Of a stretch of 64,000 nucleotides of DNA, positions 47,922 to 56,580 are shown one piece after another. A program made the position numbers and the translations under genes. The stretch's first letter is position 1, and each line of letters starts with the position of its first letter. Below the pieces are notes generated by a model that was given only the letters and a program-made list of their open reading frames with translations, ran no database searches and was not told the origin of the DNA. This DNA comes from an uncultured Gemmatimonadales bacterium. Its GTDB lineage: Bacteria; Gemmatimonadota; Gemmatimonadetes; Gemmatimonadales; GWC2-71-9. The stretch spans positions 331,696 through 395,695 of the forward strand of contig CAWCFX010000003.1 in assembly GCA_963795085.1 (NCBI GenBank), written 5' to 3'.

Positions 47922-48355
47922 TTCCCGTCACATCAACCTGGCATTCCCCTCACTTCAACGTTGGGTTCCCGCGAGTTGAAGGTTGGGTTCCCGTCACCTC
48001 AACGTTGGGTTCCCGTCACTTCAACATCGGGTTCCGGTGGCTTCAACATGCGTTTCGCGCCACGGCGGCGTGGGGTGACGGCCGGCCCGGGGTCAGGGTT
48101 CGCCAAGCCGCGGTCCCCTTCCCATCACCTCGACGGGCCGGTCCCCGGGTCCGGGTTCGGGTTCCCGCCATGTCAATGACAGGTCCCGCCAGCTCGAGGT
48201 CCGGTCCCGCCGGCCGGGGGCTCCTTCCCGCCAGGTCGAGGTATGGTTCCGCCGACCTCGAGGGGATTGAGCGGGGACCAGCGGAGGGGTTCCGGAAGCA
48301 TGCATGGCGGGTTCCCGGAGCATCAAGCTCAGCTTCCCCGGGCTTCAATCCCTGT
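47922..48355. repeat. degenerate tandem array of ~20 units with 22-bp (20-23) phasing; core TTCCCGTCACTTCAACGTTGGG
   Basis: TTCC(C/G) recurs at 47922, 47944, 47966, 47988, 48010, 48032, 48054, (gap), 48099, 48119, 48142, 48162, 48184, 48205, 48225, 48247, (gap), 48290, 48312, 48334. The five central units are nearly identical. The period is not a multiple of 3 and the same motif appears in all three frames of the ORF track, so the array is non-coding. Confidence 0.85.
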
Positions 48356-49042
48356 TGGAGATAGTTACCGGCATGGCTGGACCGTGATGCGGCGGGACCG
48401 GGAGCGACCTTCCGCTCCTCCCGTTCACGGCGTCCCGGTGGATGATCGCGGACACCGCGCGCGGGCTCCCGGAGGTTCGGGACCTGTCACTCCCTGGCCC
48501 GGCGGTGGGTACCGGGAGCGGCAACTCTGCCGGGCCGAAGCTTCCCGCCTTCTGAACGCCTGCCCCCTGTGCCCGTGAAGCACGCAGCGAGGCATGGTGA
48601 CCGGAGGGTGATGCTTGTTGGTAGTGGGCCTGCCGAGACCTGGCCGGGTATTCCATGGCCCCTGCCCCGCTCATTTCTGGGCGGGATGCCGGAACCTCCT
48701 GTCTCCCTTCCCCCGGAACGGGGCGGCCTTCACTCCATGTGCCACTTCTGCCATACATGGTAGCGGGACCCCGTGCCGGGGAATCCTTCCTGCCACGCAC
48801 CCCGGTTTCACCCTCGGCCATCACCAGTTACCGGCATGCGCCATATCGAACGAACCGCACGCGCTCCTGGCACGCGGTCCTGAGATCCGCCGCCACGACG
48901 AGTACGGCCGATGGCGGGCAGCGGGACACGCTGCAATCGTTTCCCGCCCTGCGATCCCCCGGTTACTTTGCGTTACCGGCGTCAAAGCGCCCGGAAATCC
49001 TGCCGGTGATCCGTCCGCCCCTGCACCCGGGAAGAGAATACC

Positions 49043-49489
49043 ATGGTTCACGCGAACACCCGAAACCTGGCCGGCGCCGCCCAATCCGCGCTTCGCATTG
49101 CCGCGGGCCTGGCCTTCTTCAGCCACGGGGCGCAGAAACTGTTCGGCTGGTTTGGCGGCGTGGGACCGGATGGAGGGACGGTGGAGCTCATGAGTCGATA
49201 CGGCGCCGCCGGCCTCATCGAAGCCCTAGGCGGCGCTGCCCTCGTGCTCGGCCTGTTCACCCGCCCCGTCGCGTTGATCGCTTCGGGCGAGATGGCGGTC
49301 GCGTATTTCTGGATGCACTGGGGACGATCCGGCGAGATGTGGTGGTGGGACAACCGAGGGGAGATGGTCCTGCTCTACTCGTTCATCTGGCTCTTCTTCG
49401 CCGCCGCCGGGGCCGGGCCACTCAGTCTCGATGCCTGGCGCGCGTCACGTGGCAACCCCAGCCACCCGGCAGGACCTACCCCGGGGTAA
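49043..49489 (+). CDS. DoxX-family membrane protein
   Basis: ORF track 148 aa. ALRIAAGLAFFSHGAQKLFGWFGG...GLIEALGGAALVLGLFTRPVALI is the typical DoxX signature. Confidence 0.85.
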   Translation: MVHANTRNLAGAAQSALRIAAGLAFFSHGAQKLFGWFGGVGPDGGTVELMSRYGAAGLIEALGGAALVLGLFTRPVALIASGEMAVAYFWMHWGRSGEMWWWDNRGEMVLLYSFIWLFFAAAGAGPLSLDAWRASRGNPSHPAGPTPG

Positions 49490-49625
49490 CCGGCTCGACC
49501 GGCAGGTTGCCCAGCTGACCCGCTGCCCGCACTCGGTCAGGCGCGGGACAAGGGCGTAGCCGGGGGCCGGGATTCTTCGCCAGCGCCTCGCTGCTCCCCT
49601 TAGGTGGCTTCGGGCAGGCGAGGTG

Positions 49626-51005
49626 TCAATAGTCAGGGGTTCCCTTCAACGTCAGCCCTCTGTCGGCTATGTAGCGGTCAATAGTTTCGGACTCGATTTC
49701 TCGATGAAAATATTCCTGCGGTTGCTCAGACACATTGATGACATCGACTATTCGATTGTCCGCATAGCGCACTTCCAACAGTAACTGAATATCCTCATGG
49801 TCTCCATAGCGGGTTAACTGTCCACTGCGCCGGTCAATAAACCATCCGGCGCCCCATGTTCCCAGGCCTCTGATGCCGACGAGGAAGTAGTCACGAAGTG
49901 GCTCTTCATCCTGGGACTCATGGTGGCTCCCATCGGTCATCCTGCCGAGTATCGCAAAGTCCTTGGCGGCAATTCGTCCGAACTCAGGCTGCCATTCACC
50001 CCCGGTATTCATGGAACTGCGCTGCCGCATGAGATACGAGCTCAGCGGCGACTGGACCATGATCTCCTTGCCGGCCAGGCTCCACACCAGGTTGGCCGGT
50101 CTCCCCTCATTCATGTCGAAGCGGAAACGGAGGCGTTCCCGGTAGTGCTCCAGCCGCTGCAATGCATGCTTGATCCTCGGAACACACACCCACACCCGAT
50201 TACTATTGCTCAATTCGACCGGGGGATCGTTAGCCGCGTGGACATGCCAGTCCTTGAAACCGATCAAGCTCAGAGTCTTGGTGACCTTATCTACTGCCTT
50301 GTAGTCCTCAAAATAGACTTGGGTGGCTAACCGCCTTAACCAGAAACTGGGGTCGGCCCCGGAATGATCCCTGGACCGTTCGACCGGCGGATACAATATG
50401 TCAACGCGCGGACCGGTGCGTTGACCCGTGCTGCCCAGTTGCCAGAACCGCCTGAGATTCTCGATTTTGGGTATTGCATATCGCTTCTTGATGGCCACCT
50501 CATAGAGATCATGGGTGAATCGCTCCTTGAAGTCCTTGTCGGACCGGAACGAATGGAACACGATCCCTTCCGCCTTCAGGCGCTTCTGAAATGCCCGGAG
50601 ATCTCGCTCCTGTCGGCCTCGGTCATTGTTAGCGGGCAGCTCTTTGAAGTATGCGAGGACGCCGAACGATGGGTCACTTCGATGCTTGGCTAATGCCCGC
50701 TCTACTTCGCGCTCGACATTCCCTTTTTTGTGGCCGGGCTCTTTACTGCCGTACCGCTTACCCAGGATGAGGACAAAGAAATGGCATTCATCAATGCGCT
50801 TGTTGATCTCGTCCTGAAAGGTTACCTCGCCCGCCGGCATTGCAGGCGGCCGGTTCTCCCACTTCCATGGCAGTATGTGCAGTTGGAGCGATTGGCTCAG
50901 CCGTTTGCTGGTAGTCTCAATTACTTCCTCGGCGATCTGCCGCTCTTTGGAAACATCGCCAGGCGATGAAATGAACGCTAAGTAAGACTGATAAGCCTTG
51001 GCCAT
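49626..51005 (-). CDS. DUF4062-like (TIR/deoxyribosyltransferase-like) N-terminal domain protein with an uncharacterised ~360-aa C-terminal region
   Basis: ORF track 459 aa. N-terminus YLAFISSPGDVSKERQIAEEVI...EINKRIDECHFFVLILGKRYGS fits the DUF4062 pattern (FISS..D...ER...ecD.fv.i.g.rYGs). No Walker A motif. Local GC is ~55% versus ~68-70% in the flanks. Confidence 0.7.
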   Translation of the reverse strand: MAKAYQSYLAFISSPGDVSKERQIAEEVIETTSKRLSQSLQLHILPWKWENRPPAMPAGEVTFQDEINKRIDECHFFVLILGKRYGSKEPGHKKGNVEREVERALAKHRSDPSFGVLAYFKELPANNDRGRQERDLRAFQKRLKAEGIVFHSFRSDKDFKERFTHDLYEVAIKKRYAIPKIENLRRFWQLGSTGQRTGPRVDILYPPVERSRDHSGADPSFWLRRLATQVYFEDYKAVDKVTKTLSLIGFKDWHVHAANDPPVELSNSNRVWVCVPRIKHALQRLEHYRERLRFRFDMNEGRPANLVWSLAGKEIMVQSPLSSYLMRQRSSMNTGGEWQPEFGRIAAKDFAILGRMTDGSHHESQDEEPLRDYFLVGIRGLGTWGAGWFIDRRSGQLTRYGDHEDIQLLLEVRYADNRIVDVINVSEQPQEYFHREIESETIDRYIADRGLTLKGTPDY

Positions 51006-51296
51006 CGCCCCCTCCAGACGTCAGGTCGTTGGTCTTCCACTGCATAGCCTGCACTCAAAAATGAATTGCGCAAGGGGGGGGCCGACGTGGATCAATGGGC
51101 GTTGCGGAGTCCGGGGGAAAACTGGCGCCGAAACGGGGTGGCCCTTCCCCGCCGGGTGCGCGGCGCGGTCGCGGGGCGGCGGGGCAGGACAACGGACTGA
51201 GCCAATGATGGCTACGCCCCTTCGGGAACAGAGTCTTCAGGGCTGCGCCTGGTGCAAGATGGATCTACTTGACGAGGGGAAGGACGCGGTGACACA

Positions 51297-52355
51297 TCAG
51301 GGGTGCCAGGACGTCCGCCGGATCCTGACGGTCACCCCGTAGCTCGAACTGGCGCCACACCCGACCTGGCTCTTGACCGAGTAGAACGTAGCCGGCAGCA
51401 GCCACTCACCGGTCGCGATCGTGTTGCGATGCAGTTCGTTGCCGTACACCCGATACGCCGCACCCGCTGTCGGGCCGTCACACCCATGCCAGGAATGGTC
51501 GTTCATCCTGCCGGTAATATCGAGGACGTCAAACGGCTGAATCCGGGGAAATGCATCGAGAGCGGCGTCATAGAAGGCATCGTCCAGATCACCATAGTTC
51601 GATACCAGTTCGAATCCGTAGTTCCACACCCCGAAGGCGAACAGCAGCGTGCTCGTCTGGTCCGGAGGCATGCTGAACGGGCCGACGAAGAGCTGGTGGT
51701 TCTCCACCGTGTGGGTTCCGTCCCGATAGTCCCCCAATCGCTTCGTGCCCGAGCACTCGGTGAGACTGCCGCCGCGGTGGCAGCGCTCAGGGTGGAAATA
51801 TTGCCCGTAGACATTTCCCATGAGGCTCAGCCAGGCGGTATCGGTGGTTCTCGCCCGGGTGTGGTTGACACGAATGTTGTCGACGGACACCGTATACTGT
51901 GCATAGGTCGGGATCGTGATGGTCGCGCTGGCCAGGGTTTCGGCACAGGAGAAGTCCTGGCCGGTGCCGGCGCGGCGACACACGATGATCTCCATGGGCC
52001 TGCCCGCCAGGCCGGCATAGGGGTGAAGAATGTGGCTCCGCTCGGCCGGCGCCTGGATGTCATCAAATACCGAACAGCCCCGGCCGTCCGCCCCGCACAC
52101 CATCACGGATTCGACCGGGCGAGCTCCGCCGACACCAGGCGACACCCGAAGGGTGAAAGGCAGCTCGACCAGCCTGCCCTCCAGCACCGGGATGCCCGTT
52201 GTGGGTTGGGCGAGCTCCAGCTCATACCTCGCCGTCAGCCGTAAAGCCGCTTGGGCGCCAATGCCCTGCCCCGGGAGGACGGCAGGACATGCGACCAGTC
52301 CCACCACGAGCCAGAGTGCATGGCGACCAATCCCGGCATCAGAGCACTCGAACAT
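51297..52355 (-). CDS. secreted hypothetical protein (Cys-rich, no family recognised)
   Basis: ORF track 352 aa. N-terminal hydrophobic segment HALWLVVGLVACPAVLPGQG. Intact here, fragmented in the mirrored copy. Confidence 0.6.
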   Translation of the reverse strand: MFECSDAGIGRHALWLVVGLVACPAVLPGQGIGAQAALRLTARYELELAQPTTGIPVLEGRLVELPFTLRVSPGVGGARPVESVMVCGADGRGCSVFDDIQAPAERSHILHPYAGLAGRPMEIIVCRRAGTGQDFSCAETLASATITIPTYAQYTVSVDNIRVNHTRARTTDTAWLSLMGNVYGQYFHPERCHRGGSLTECSGTKRLGDYRDGTHTVENHQLFVGPFSMPPDQTSTLLFAFGVWNYGFELVSNYGDLDDAFYDAALDAFPRIQPFDVLDITGRMNDHSWHGCDGPTAGAAYRVYGNELHRNTIATGEWLLPATFYSVKSQVGCGASSSYGVTVRIRRTSWHP

Positions 52356-52503
52356 GGGAATCCCTTTTCGGAAGCGCGTGAACCTTGGGCCTCTTCCTCG
52401 ACCAGGTCGAGAATGGCCTGGTCGCGACGGACGCTATGGCCCTCGAAGGGCGCCGAGAAGCCCTCCCGGCTTGCCTGCTACCCGCACCACGATCCCCCTC
52501 GGC

Positions 52504-53133
52504 CTATGTGATTGACGCCTGGACGGCTGCGAAGAAAGCCACAGGATCAGCGCGAAAACAGGCCCGAAGCATGGTCGGGACTTGCGGGTCAGCCCGGACC
52601 AGAACGCCGGGAGTGTGGCTGTCCCGGTGGGTCACCAGAAGCTCGACAAACAGCCCCATTATTTCGCGATCCTGAACGACCGGGTCGGCTATCTGCTGAA
52701 CCTGGCCGTTCTTCGTATGGAGTCCAATGATTCGAGCACGACTCCTGGCATAAATGCCGGCGAGATAGCGCCCCAGAACGGCATTGTCGCACGGAACCTG
52801 GGTCGCGATGAGGGCCAGGTAGGCCAGAAAGTCAGCTCCATGGGCCTGGGCACACGCACCATACAACTCCTTGGCATCTCGGTTGTGCCGCTGCCCATGC
52901 TGGAGTCGCTCTAGCACTTCACCTTGATGGTGGGCCATCGCATCAAGCGCGCGTAGCGGTGATTCCTTTCTCGCAAGGCCGTTGCCCCATTGCCATTCTA
53001 GGTGTTGCATGGAGGGTCCACAGGCGAGAGGAACGGGATCGGTGGTGTGCCGCCAATAGGGCCGCGTCTGTGCGCTGATGGAAGGCGCAGCACACAAGAC
53101 CCCGATCAATACGAGACACAGGTTTCTTCGCAT
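52504..53133 (-). CDS. secreted hypothetical protein (mostly helical, no family recognised)
   Basis: ORF track 209 aa. Signal peptide MRRNLCLVLIGVLCAAPSISAQ. Confidence 0.6.
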   Translation of the reverse strand: MRRNLCLVLIGVLCAAPSISAQTRPYWRHTTDPVPLACGPSMQHLEWQWGNGLARKESPLRALDAMAHHQGEVLERLQHGQRHNRDAKELYGACAQAHGADFLAYLALIATQVPCDNAVLGRYLAGIYARSRARIIGLHTKNGQVQQIADPVVQDREIMGLFVELLVTHRDSHTPGVLVRADPQVPTMLRACFRADPVAFFAAVQASIT

Positions 53134-53412
53134 CGAGCCCCTCCGCGTTCAGGTCCGCTTTCGTCCCCCCCTTAGCAATAGCGTGCCGAAAAGAACGAGA
53201 ATTCGCAAGGGATCTCGGCACCGCCGGCCACAAAGGCCCCCGCAATCCGCACCTGAAGCTCTTTCACCGAGCTGTCAGGGCTTTACCGGGCTGCCTGCTG
53301 GGACGTTCGGAAGCTACCGTGCACGTGGCACTTACACCGCTTCGCACCCCGGCCCCTTGCCGAACCCTGTTTTCGGCTGCACGCTGGAGGTTCACCCTTT
53401 CGGAGCACGGGA

Positions 53413-54329
53413 ATGCGCGCCGCGGCCATTGTTGTCACTGCAATGCTGGTGGGAGCCCCGTAGCGCCTTACGCGGTGGCTCAGGACACCCTTCGCTACAA
53501 CCACTTCGAGAACTGCCCCAAGTCCGATCCACCGGCCAGGACCTGCCATGTCGTCGTTACCCGGCGGATTCAGCCGGGGCATCACCTGACGGTGCGAATC
53601 GAGGCCACGGATCCCGCCACCTTCGAAGGGCGGGTTACCAACCTTGCGCTTAGCACCGCGACGAAGCCGGACGACCCTCTACGAATCAAGAACACGGCCC
53701 CGACCGGCTCCATGGATCTCGATATAACCCACGACGTCCGCTATGGCGGATACATGGTGACGATCGACCGGCAAAGCGGCAAGCCGGAACACGATACACT
53801 CCGACCGGCCATCCTGGTCATCCAGGTGGATGCCGAGGACAAGCCCTGGTCCTTCAGCGGGGGGATCTCGTTCACCACGATTCGCAACCAGCCCTTCGTG
53901 GTTCGCAAAGCCGACGACGACACGCTTCGGGTCCAGGAGGACCCGGATCGCCGGGACGACGCCTCAGTGGGATTTGGCACTTTCTTCACGATCGACCTTC
54001 CCAGGATAGACCTGGGACCGCTTGGGGCGGCCTCCAAGCTCGGGCTGGCCATCGGCATTGGGCTGGAGACTTCGGGGGAGACCCACTACTACGCCGGGCT
54101 GGCCTACCAGATCCATCGCGGGGTCTTTCTCAACTCCGGATACGTGCTCGGCAGGGTCAATGCGCTGCCGAGCGGACTTCGTCTCGATGACGCGGTCACC
54201 GATCCCAACGCGCTGTCCAACCTGCAGCGTCGCAACCAGAGCGGGTTCTTTATCGGTGTGTCCGCCGTGTTCCTGGGAGGGGGGCAATCGACATACTCCA
54301 AGCCGTTCGCGGGCACCCAGGAGAAGTAG
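53413..54329 (+). CDS. hypothetical secreted protein with a beta-rich, possibly barrel-like C-terminus; signal peptide displaced by a 1-nt frameshift
   Basis: The body is ORF 53319..54329. A 16-codon ORF at 53413-53463 (MRAAAIVVTAMLVGAP*) is a good signal peptide. It would join ...VAPYAVAQ|DTLRY of the main frame if one base were added in the CCCC run at 53456-53459. Confidence 0.55.
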
Positions 54330-54645
54330 TCGGCTCGAATTGCTAAACCCACTTCAACTCCGGAAGTAATGATGCCAAGGGGTTGGTACGTTAGCGCCCC
54401 CGGAACCGGAGGGGCCATGACCGGGCTTCCGCGCACAGGTTCTCACAGCTCCGCGACAGTGTGAATACGCTGAAGCGTGACCTCCCTGCACAGGCCCAGA
54501 ATGCAATCCGCTGCAGGATATCCGGATGACTGGACGGGTGACCTGGGTGATGAAGGTAGCGCAGTGGTACAATAGGCAAGGCGGCGGCTGGCGGAGGACC
54601 ATTCGGCCGCGCATATTGATCGCTCCCTCGCAACCCTTCTACGCC

Positions 54646-56580
54646 ATGCGCTCACGTCAGCCAAAGCTGATTCGGAGGCAATGTCTCCTTGGCCTGCTTA
54701 TCGCCCTGATGACCGGGTGTGGTGGAGACAGCGCTGGTCCTGATCCGGTCGACCCCACCTTGCCCGCAAAGATCACGATTCTGCCGGTAGCAAGCACCAA
54801 GATATTCATCGGGCTCACTCTCCAGCTTCAGGCGGTGGTCACCGACGGCAACGGAGATACGCTGGCCAGCGCCCCGGTTACCTGGTCCAGTGACGGACCC
54901 GACAATGCTTCGATAAGCAGCCAGGGTCTGGTCACGGGTATCCAGCATGGCACGGTGATTATCACAGCCACGTCGGGCGCTTTGAGCGTCACCCACACGC
55001 TCCATGTCATCGAGCTGGCCACCTACATCTATACCCCCGTTGATACCACGCTTGATCCTAACCAGGTGGTGCAGTACACGATCACTGGTCGCGACATCCA
55101 GGGCGTCCAGCATGGCGACCTTCCTTTATTCTGGAGCTCAGCCCAAGGCGCACTGGCCACGGTAACCCAGACCGGCACCGTGACGGCCCAGGAATCCGAT
55201 GGCGGGAATGTCCAGATCACCTTTACCATTGGCAGCCTGTTCGGACGGCTAAACCTCGTCATAGCACCTGCCCCTGTCGCCACGGTGACCGTCTCCACGG
55301 GCACCGGCTGGGTTGGTGAAGTCATCGCGCTGACGTATCAATTGTTGAGTTTCAACGGCGTTGTCCTGACGAACCGGCCGGTGACCTGGAGTTCGTCGGA
55401 CCTTCTCACCGCTACGGTTCAGCCGAACGGCCAGGTGACCGGACTTAAAGCTGGATCTGCTACGATCACCGTGACCAGCGGCATGGCCAGCGGTGGGAGC
55501 AGTTTTGTCGTCAAGCCGTTGCCGTCGTTCCAGCATCTGACGACAGGTGGCATCATTTGCGGGCTCTCCTTCCAGGGTGAGCTCTTCTGCTGGACCGAAG
55601 GCGTAACCGCTTTTCCCGCCCCAATCGCCGCCGGCTTCCAATTCACCGAAGTCGGGACCAGCGGACACATGTGCGGGCTCGCCTCGGGCGTGGCGTACTG
55701 CTGGGGCGCGAATGGCGCCGGCCAACTGGGTGACGGATCGACCACAGACCGTACCACACCGACGCTCGTGAGCGGTGGGCTGACGTTCGCTCATCTGGCG
55801 GTTGGTAACCTGTACACCTGCGGTGTTACAATCGGGGGCACGGCCTACTGCTGGGGCGCCAATACAAACGGTGAGCTTGGCAACGGGACCACCCAACCCA
55901 GCGCGGTACCAGTAGAGGTGTCGGGTGGACATAGCTTCAGCCAGATCTCCGCTGGAAGAATCGGCACGGCGAGCACCTGCGGCATTACTTCTCTCCAGAT
56001 AGCCTGGTGTTGGGGGGCAAACAATGACGGTCAGCTCGGCACCGGCGATTCTCTGCCTTCGACGACACCCAGGCAGGTGATCGGAGGCGTGACCTTCCAG
56101 AGTATCTCGGTCAGTAATTTCCAGACCTGCGGTATATCGACCTCGCAGGTCGCGTATTGCTGGGGCCCCAATGTCTACGGCGGACTTGGTGATGGCACGC
56201 TTGTCAGTACAGCGGCTCCCCACCCCGTGCTGGGCGGCAATTACTCGCATGTCGTCGCCGGATATCTATACAGTTGTGGACTCGCTACGGGGGGCGGAGG
56301 AAACCTGAAATGCTGGGGATGGAACGAGTCCTATCAACTTGGGGATGGAACCCAATCTCAGCGGCCGACGCCGGTGACGATTGGTAGTCTCGGCTTCACC
56401 GAGTTGAACACAGCAGCACGCGGTGGCTGCGGACTGACCTCAACTGGTCATGTACCAATCCAACCAGTTGGGGGGTTGCATCCACAGCCACCGCGTGCTG
56501 CTGTGTTCAACTCGGTGAAGCTCGAGACTACCAATCGTCACCAGCATCAGCCGCTGAATTGGGTTCCATCCCCAACTTGA
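54646..56580 (+). CDS. lipoprotein with three Big_2-type Ig domains and an RCC1-repeat beta-propeller; 3' end replaced by the palindrome junction
   Basis: Internal ATG at 54646 (MRSRQPKLIRRQCLLGLLIALMTGCGG lipobox). Big_2-like ITILPV...TWSSDGPDNASISSQGLVTGIQHGTVIITA, three times. RCC1-like YCWGANGAGQLGDGST, YCWGANTNGELGNGTT, WCWGANNDGQLGTGDS, YCWGPNVYGGLGDGT, KCWGWNESYQLGDGT. After ...GGCGLTSTGH the ORF reads through the inverted-repeat centre. Confidence 0.8.
   Translation: MRSRQPKLIRRQCLLGLLIALMTGCGGDSAGPDPVDPTLPAKITILPVASTKIFIGLTLQLQAVVTDGNGDTLASAPVTWSSDGPDNASISSQGLVTGIQHGTVIITATSGALSVTHTLHVIELATYIYTPVDTTLDPNQVVQYTITGRDIQGVQHGDLPLFWSSAQGALATVTQTGTVTAQESDGGNVQITFTIGSLFGRLNLVIAPAPVATVTVSTGTGWVGEVIALTYQLLSFNGVVLTNRPVTWSSSDLLTATVQPNGQVTGLKAGSATITVTSGMASGGSSFVVKPLPSFQHLTTGGIICGLSFQGELFCWTEGVTAFPAPIAAGFQFTEVGTSGHMCGLASGVAYCWGANGAGQLGDGSTTDRTTPTLVSGGLTFAHLAVGNLYTCGVTIGGTAYCWGANTNGELGNGTTQPSAVPVEVSGGHSFSQISAGRIGTASTCGITSLQIAWCWGANNDGQLGTGDSLPSTTPRQVIGGVTFQSISVSNFQTCGISTSQVAYCWGPNVYGGLGDGTLVSTAAPHPVLGGNYSHVVAGYLYSCGLATGGGGNLKCWGWNESYQLGDGTQSQRPTPVTIGSLGFTELNTAARGGCGLTSTGHVPIQPVGGLHPQPPRAAVFNSVKLETTNRHQHQPLNWVPSPT

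Follow-up and report, generated by a model that had tools for sequence, protein, structure and literature searches.

The DUF4062 gene and its product

The gene described here occupies positions 49626-51005 of a 64,000-nucleotide stretch of DNA (the window, numbered from its first letter) from contig CAWCFX010000003.1 of an uncultured Gemmatimonadales bacterium. Its product has a TIR-like module of the DUF4062 family at the N-terminus, a helical stalk, and a C-terminal module that is conserved throughout its relatives (Table 1). Homologues of about 455 amino acids that align with it end to end have their starts and stops at positions equivalent to those of this open reading frame (ORF). The first-pass annotation of the sequence had described the gene as isolated and as lying in DNA of lower GC content, and both points are borne out: 136 nt separate it from a gene for DoxX, an identity confirmed by Pfam, and 291 nt lie on its other side. 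The GC content of the gene is 54.9% compared to 66.3% for the window, and the GC content at third codon positions (GC3) is 65.9% compared to 77-88% in the left-hand neighbour genes, a base composition foreign to its surroundings. No transmembrane or hydrophobic segment was found in the 459-amino acid protein, nor was a Walker A motif, whether by the strict pattern G-x4-G-K-[ST] or by a relaxed one, the latter as had been noted from the sequence, and the protein is not a STAND NTPase. A search for sigma-70 promoter and intrinsic terminator consensus sequences around the gene found none, which is uninformative for such an organism.

Table 1. Features of the DUF4062 gene and its product, with positions in the window
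Feature	Residues	Positions	Strand	Basis
Complete coding sequence with stop codon, 459 amino acids		49626..51005	-	ORF list; ATG start
DUF4062/NIR TIR-like core, predicted NADase	~6-153	50547..50990	-	Pfam, Foldseek, hhalign to Eva01
Predicted catalytic-site motif G95-N96-V97-E98-R99-E100 (family consensus S-N-T-E-x-E)	95-100	50706..50723	-	Eva01 alignment, conservation
Helical stalk/linker	~156-188	50442..50540	-	AlphaFold2 (AF2) helices 156-176 and 179-188
Conserved alpha/beta C-terminal module, 10 strands and ~6 helices	~195-453	49647..50423	-	Domain-only AF2 model
Signature GIRGLGTWGAGWFIDR: strand, Gly-rich loop, helix	377-392	49830..49877	-	Conservation
Shine-Dalgarno-like GGAGGGGG		51008..51015	-	2 nt upstream of ATG; read from sequence

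The N-terminal module

Residues 11-104 match Pfam DUF4062 (PF13271) with 38.0 bits (E = 2e-9; gathering cutoff 24.7), while TIR_2 is sub-threshold on the same protein (22.1 bits, cutoff 28). The PF13271 annotation is carried by all full-length homologues. The AlphaFold model of the full-length protein (predicted local distance difference test, pLDDT, 88) has a core of beta-alpha repeats over residues 6-153 followed by two helices over 156-188. When this model was compared to the PDB with Foldseek, the top match was TIR-STING (9lmq, E = 1.9e-4), and other matches included a cyanobacterial nucleoside 2'-deoxyribosyltransferase (9emx/8pqt), the plant L7 TIR (7vu8), AbTir (7uxu), and the CRISPR-associated TIR protein Cat1 (9mud). 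By model and by structural match, then, the N-terminal module has an alpha/beta fold like that of TIR domains and nucleoside 2'-deoxyribosyltransferases, and the DUF4062 assignment first made from the letters alone holds up in the HMMER comparison to PF13271 that had been proposed as its check.

Three preprints from 2026 give this assignment its functional meaning. DUF4062 has been described as a TIR-like NADase, and the single-gene system Swarozyc needs both a catalytic glutamate and an auxiliary (AUX) domain; in KpSwz, defence is by abortive infection via NAD+ depletion and the AUX domain, of helix-turn-helix/winged-helix type, binds the phage portal (Osinski et al. 2026, bioRxiv 10.64898/2026.05.01.722283). 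The domain has been renamed NIR and serves as effector in an Avs2, in Vulcan, where it is joined to HEAT repeats, and in Vesta, where a NIR protein is accompanied by an alkaline phosphatase (Le Mouellic et al. 2026, bioRxiv 10.64898/2026.09.04.749371). In Evangelion, founded by Eva01 on the Staphylococcus aureus plasmid pMW2, F11 is essential and E87 is catalytic (Ibarra-Chavez et al. 2026, bioRxiv 10.64898/2026.06.25.731849). Across the three preprints, defence depends on an equivalent glutamate (E97 in Swarozyc, E87 in Evangelion, E98 in Vulcan, E103 in Vesta, and E108 in Avs2), and the auxiliary domain is required for defence in both Swarozyc and Evangelion (bioRxiv 10.64898/2026.05.01.722283; 10.64898/2026.06.25.731849).

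The Eva01 sequence (pMW2, NC_005011, 3863-4837; WP_000072390.1; labelled L106) was aligned to the family profile with hhalign (probability 96%, E = 2.6e-9), and residues 2-153 of Eva01 correspond to residues 2-172 of the query. The alignment pairs F11 of Eva01 with F11 here and the catalytic E87 with E100, and places S82-Y83-T84-E85-M86-E87 of Eva01 on the family motif S-N-T-E-x-E. Both F11 and E100 are invariant in the aligned family members (44 of 44), and E98 is conserved in at least 90% of the 44 sequences. E100 is thus the predicted catalytic glutamate. The residue that had been put forward for mutation was instead the glutamate of the motif KERQIAEE (E21), which is invariant but is not the position that aligns with the catalytic residue of Eva01. 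In the present copy, G95 and V97 replace the serine (at least 70% in the family) and threonine (at least 90%) found beside the catalytic glutamate. The alignments to Eva01 and to the PADLOC profile PDC-S60 stop at residues ~170-172, within the stalk, and the N-terminal module, taken as the TIR-like core together with the helical stalk, extends to about residue 190.

The C-terminal module

Some 360 residues had been left without a recognisable motif in the first-pass annotation; the part of the protein that lies beyond the N-terminal module is shorter than that, about 260-280 amino acids, but it does indeed match nothing in the profile libraries. Pfam scans of the C-terminal part of 30 members gave no consistent match, and NCBIfam and PADLOC gave none. 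Searches of PDB sequences with phmmer and with a profile of the module likewise gave nothing consistent, and the profile had zero matches at E values up to 10. A domain-only AlphaFold model made from 30 sequences is confident (pLDDT 91.4, predicted template modelling score, pTM, 0.90), and the structural search proposed for this region found neither a housekeeping enzyme nor any other relative: with Foldseek the best E value was 0.026 against the PDB (probability at most 0.47, template modelling score at most 0.34) and 0.032 against the viral folds of BFVD, both taken as no match. The comparison to the PDB showed no similarity to SAVED, STING, CARF, or cNMP-binding folds, and neither Foldseek nor Pfam gave a match to SLOG or Macro domains. 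The module is not internally duplicated and is not homologous to the N-terminal TIR-like domain according to hhalign (probabilities below 3%). A similarity to the nucleotidyltransferase ANT(2'')-Ia (E = 0.14-0.6) was considered and set aside as not significant; the positions that would form the DxD/E pattern, including D405, are not conserved, and Foldseek found no nucleotidyltransferase fold in the module.

The C-terminal module is the most strongly conserved part of the protein, and its invariant positions are E233, D234, C274, R277, S319, P320, Y324, D349, R355, and G377-G385. They fall in the motifs FED (E233, D234), W-x-C-x-P-R-N (C274, R277), S-P-L-x-x-Y-L-x-x-Q-R (S319, P320, Y324), A-K-D-Y-A-I-L-A-R (D349, R355), and G-I-R-G-L-G-T-W-G-A-G-W-F-I-D-R, which contains the most conserved 15-residue block of the protein (mean column conservation 0.86). 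The protein does contain the two motifs quoted when the sequence was first read, RVWVCVPR and GIRGLGTWGAGWFIDR, which rank with the best conserved positions of the family; the latter is kept in all of the variant architectures described below. Mean pairwise identity is 39.5% in the C-terminal module compared to 37.5% in the NADase domain, and 68% of 946 sequence pairs show the higher conservation in the C-terminal module.

Variant architectures

Five proteins among the cluster representatives join the C-terminal module to a different N-terminus. One is P0190, which has a genuine TIR domain of CAP12/Pycsar effectors (Pfam PF10137, E = 3e-27) and is recognised in PADLOC both as the CBASS Effector_TIR (140 bits) and as PycTIR (109 bits). 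Ahead of its gene (L038:3-3096, L039, and L040) and on the same strand there is in every case a gene for a D12-class N6-adenine DNA methyltransferase, and the two could be a functional pair; no cyclase stands beside P0190, the adjoining gene being that of the methyltransferase. This type II D12 methyltransferase carries an N-terminal extension of about 210 amino acids. P0219 is a full-length homologue that has lost the FISSP and TExE motifs and the catalytic glutamate. In P0203 and P0216 the homology begins only at residues ~180 and ~220, respectively, and their remaining regions have no Pfam match; P0216 is also without C274, P276, and R277. By eye, the N-terminus of P0203 was suggestive of an Xre-type helix-turn-helix with an MbcA/ParS antitoxin-like region, but Pfam did not support this even at E values up to 10. 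P0193 has an N-terminal extension before a DUF4062-type core, the core being one that was seen by eye and is not called by Pfam.

The C-terminal module thus evolves as an autonomous unit, and it has come to be joined to NADase effectors of two different families. One module carried by two effector families is the pattern expected of a sensor or regulator with exchangeable effectors, and P0190, read from its domains, would be a case of classical effector swapping on a constant sensor. The same observations bear on another explanation, in which the C-terminal module has enzymatic activity and is either the actual effector or a second one, with E233-D234, D349, R355, R379, and GLGTWG forming an active site for, e.g., a nucleotide or nucleic-acid substrate, and with the TIR-like N-terminus being regulatory, oligomerising, or a co-effector. 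In conservation the module equals or exceeds the NADase domain, and its polar residues are near-invariant; it persists where the N-terminus has lost the catalytic glutamate (P0219) or is unrelated (P0203 and P0216), and a strand followed by a glycine-rich loop and a helix is typical of phosphate-binding elements. However, the module has no similarity to an enzyme family by sequence profile or by fold, the weak ANT(2'')-Ia similarity comes without the nucleotidyltransferase pattern, the C274/P276/R277 positions are lost in P0216, and both of the partners to which the module is joined, DUF4062 and the CAP12-type TIR, are already established effectors. A catalytic C-terminal module is on the whole a rather unlikely explanation of the family.

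Distribution of the family

Among 5.8 billion proteins searched, 118 relatives were found with 31-45% identity, nearly all of them 450-460 amino acids in length and aligning end to end, and named only as "DUF4062 domain-containing" or "hypothetical." A profile of the C-terminal part alone found 348 clusters, and HMMER, run exhaustively against 1.84 billion cluster representatives, gave 95 matches below 1e-30. When one genome per species was scanned for the pattern G[IL]RGLGTWG, 30 loci were found in 185,579 species (~0.02%), all in metagenome-assembled genomes (MAGs) and spread over more than ten phyla. These include Acidobacteriota, Chloroflexota, Planctomycetota, Verrucomicrobiota, Lentisphaerota, Zixibacteria, and KSB1, as well as Bacteroidota, Ignavibacteria, Desulfobacterota, and several proteobacterial orders. 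The family as a whole is rare, with a patchy occurrence across phyla. Several MAGs have copies split by frameshifts (the set L041, L023, L032, L036, and L042), and the copy in L042 is without the whole N-terminal domain. Such frameshifted and truncated copies are either those of a decaying accessory gene or the product of assembly indels, and they fit an accessory gene.

Genomic context

Genomes and metagenomes provided 89 non-redundant loci, for which the flanking ORFs were clustered. No conserved operon partner was found in these, nor in an earlier round of 35 loci, and no neighbour family occurs in more than four of the 89; the commonest is an Mrr-type restriction endonuclease. The family gene thus has no obligate partner gene. 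When 150 flanking ORFs of 34 loci were scanned in bulk, defence genes did appear, namely those for caspases (2), ThsB-like TIR proteins (3), TIR-TM, Mrr (2), type II and type III methyltransferases, MADS components, and PDC-S02, together with IS91 and DDE transposases. Of NIR genes in general, 20% are near known defence systems compared to 3.9% expected by chance (bioRxiv 10.64898/2026.09.04.749371).

Two loci have a three-gene cassette downstream of the family gene and on the same strand (L001:11437-14548 and L006:11793-14355). It encodes a ThsB-like TIR protein (123-130 amino acids), a Peptidase_C14 caspase (324 amino acids), and a TIR protein (285-321 amino acids). The third-gene TIR copy in L001 has weak winged-helix matches, and AbiEii lies upstream in the same locus. 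These arrangements raise the question of whether the family protein is a ThsA-like effector in a Thoeris-like pathway, with the C-terminal module binding a signal that other TIR proteins, encoded nearby or elsewhere, derive from NAD, and thereby activating the NADase. The family members of the two loci are only 37% identical and yet both are followed by the cassette, TIR genes are also near the family gene in L060 and L064, and a small-molecule ligand would be in keeping with a pocket-like motif that is highly conserved. However, the cassette is present in only two of the 89 loci and is missing beside P0097 (L004), a relative 61% identical to P0099; as a feature of the family it is ruled out. 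The caspases of L001 and L006 are 58% identical compared to 37% for the family proteins, which suggests a separate, co-located unit, and no TIR gene was seen next to the gene in the window. The cassette is read here as a separate system rather than an obligate partner, and may be an uncharacterised TIR-caspase defence system. Dependence of the family protein on signals from other TIR proteins is very unlikely.

The last alternative is that the protein belongs to no conflict system at all, and instead serves NAD or nucleoside metabolism as a housekeeping or regulatory enzyme related to the nucleoside 2'-deoxyribosyltransferases that Foldseek also matches. In its favour, the context in the window is not defence-like and several homologous loci have metabolic neighbours. 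A housekeeping gene would not be expected, however, in ~0.02% of species genomes with a patchy distribution over many phyla and no conserved context, nor with a foreign composition and decayed copies. The C-terminal module has also been exchanged with a CBASS/Pycsar-type TIR, and all of the characterised bacterial DUF4062 proteins are defence effectors. To this alternative we give even less credence than to the Thoeris-like one.

In the window itself, the gene is flanked on one side by DoxX and then by a MerR-family regulator with B12-binding domains (46522-47490, + strand), which adjoins DUF378 and outer membrane protein beta-barrel genes. In its architecture this regulator resembles the CarH-type repressors that respond to light or cobalamin. 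Between the regulator gene and DoxX is a gene-poor gap of about 1.5 kb (47500-49040), in which a degenerate 22-nt tandem array of TTCCCGTCACTTCAACGTTGGG occupies 47922-48047 (5.7 copies, 76% matches); further copies of the repeat are scattered near 48159 and 48309, and a 21-nt array of 3.9 copies occupies 48182-48263. The arrays have no spacers, so they are not CRISPR, and have no Rfam match. The other flank is a run of ORFs without Pfam match, plus a Big_2/RCC1 protein. Two of these ORFs, upstream of the DUF4062 gene and on the same strand (51297-52355, 352 amino acids, and 52504-53133, 209 amino acids, both - strand), have hydrophobic, signal peptide-like N-termini; neither has a Pfam or PADLOC match or a homologue beside any other family member. 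More broadly, the right-hand ~14 kb (49000-63000) has a GC content of 0.56-0.63 compared to 0.65-0.73 over 1-49 kb, and is filled with ORFs without any Pfam match except for Ig-like/RCC1 surface-type proteins. The edges of this lower-GC region are not marked by an integrase, transposase, or tRNA.

Comparison with known systems

The class to which the protein belongs, a DUF4062/NIR NADase with an auxiliary domain, is already described in the 2026 preprints. The protein shares its plan with Swarozyc: both are single genes with an N-terminal DUF4062 NADase, a glutamate at ~97-100, a helical stalk, and a C-terminal auxiliary domain. The KpSwz AUX domain is of helix-turn-helix/winged-helix type, while the module here is a 10-stranded alpha/beta structure with no winged helix-turn-helix match, the two having been compared by fold class only. 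Evangelion has a homologous DUF4062 core and the same single-gene logic of core plus AUX; however, the AUX region of Eva01 (~154-324) is unrelated to the C-terminal module, the alignment ending at residue ~172, and Eva01 is plasmid-borne in Staphylococcus while this family is on none of 72,556 plasmids. Vulcan, Vesta, and the NIR-Avs2 share a modular N-terminal NIR effector with a catalytic glutamate (E98, E103, and E108, respectively). The C-terminal part of Vulcan consists of HEAT repeats, whereas the module here is mixed alpha/beta with no HEAT or other repeat in Pfam. Vesta is a two-gene system with the alkaline phosphatase vstB, but the present family has no conserved partner in the 89 loci, and the scan of ORFs adjacent to the gene in the window gave no phosphatase. 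Avs2 is a STAND NTPase with TPR, and the protein here has no match to Walker A, NACHT, NB-ARC, AAA, or TPR.

The TIR effectors of CBASS and Pycsar (TIR-SAVED, TIR-STING, and PycTIR) are similar in having a TIR-type NADase and a C-terminal ligand-sensing domain, but no cyclase or CD-NTase recurs beside the family members in the 89 loci and the module has no match to SAVED, STING, or CARF folds. Thoeris has an obligate adjacent ThsB, while ThsB-like neighbours occur in two of the 89 loci here and the protein has no match to SLOG or Macro domains. The N-terminal ~165 residues match PDC-S60, a PADLOC candidate (E = 7e-20); however, only positions 5-166 of the 906 in the profile are matched, so the PADLOC comparison that had been recommended finds a shared N-terminal region and not membership of that family. 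The suggestion that the architecture may be undescribed likewise stands in part: the NADase plus auxiliary-domain class is that of Swarozyc, Evangelion, and Vulcan, but this particular C-terminal module appears undescribed: judged by the text of the three preprints and by the libraries searched, it is none of the auxiliary domains reported so far. The family may be present, unnamed, in the AUX-annotated trees among the figures of the same preprints.

Proposed function

The reading we favour, and consider on the whole a probable one from sequence and predicted structure, is that the gene encodes a stand-alone, single-gene NADase that protects against phage by abortive infection and has a new sensor module. 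A single-gene role in conflict or defence was also the proposal of the first-pass annotation, and it is the best reading of a rare, patchy family that has no conserved neighbour in 89 loci, some defence and mobile-element neighbours, and, in this window, a foreign base composition. In such a protein, the C-terminal module would hold the NIR domain, with its putative catalytic E100, inactive through the stalk that couples them. As a sensor or regulator, the C-terminal module would recognise a cue of infection, and recognition would lead to the oligomeric rearrangement on which the activity of TIR-like NADases depends; hydrolysis of NAD+ would then deplete the cell of NAD+ and result in abortive infection.

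As to the cue, we would speculate that it is conserved, or that the module provides a conserved surface, rather than that a fast-evolving phage protein is recognised. A small-molecule, nucleotide, or nucleic-acid cue, or an oligomerisation surface, is favoured because the motifs of the module are near-invariant at 30-45% overall identity, and because the module is slightly better conserved than the catalytic domain. A more specific and distinctly more tentative version is that the C-terminal module is a new fold acting as receptor for a conserved small molecule or nucleotide, whether phage-derived, damage-derived, or a second messenger, and swappable between NIR and CAP12-type TIR NADases. The ligand would then be an orphan, with no synthase nearby.

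Several observations weigh against an anti-phage NADase of this kind. The C-terminal module of the family is absent not only from the plasmids but also from 50,697 phage genomes and from IMG/VR, and the plasmid search gave just five weak matches, all to the N-terminal DUF4062. Among the ORFs scanned at 42-64 kb of the window there is no integrase, transposase, or known defence gene; there is no tRNA gene anywhere in the window, and no defence island surrounds the gene. Many of the homologous loci have the housekeeping neighbours guaA, pyrG, polA, mutS, and amt. Conservation of the module that equals or exceeds that of the catalytic domain is atypical for sensors of phage proteins, and the variants in which the N-terminus is degenerate (P0219) or unrelated (P0203 and P0216) suggest that the module may itself be active. 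With G95 and V97 next to E100, the activity of this particular copy could be reduced, to judge from the family consensus.

Implications

Only in 2026 was DUF4062/NIR recognised as an NAD+-depleting immune effector that is common to bacteria and the human vault protein TEP1. The known NIR systems differ in how the NADase is switched, and each characterised auxiliary domain has its own target, be it the phage portal, intermediates of replication, or a small protein of the phage. What is new here is a candidate auxiliary module that is unusually conserved and confidently modelled, that has no relative in Pfam, the PDB, or viral structure libraries, and that has been recruited by a CBASS/Pycsar-type TIR as well. 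If the module is indeed a small-molecule receptor, it would be a new class of sensor comparable to SAVED, STING, SLOG, and CARF. Nearly all of the family is from uncultured environmental phyla, whose defence repertoires are poorly charted, and the trigger of the C-terminal module, once found, would provide a new principle of infection sensing and would show how a non-protein or conserved cue gates TIR-like NADases.

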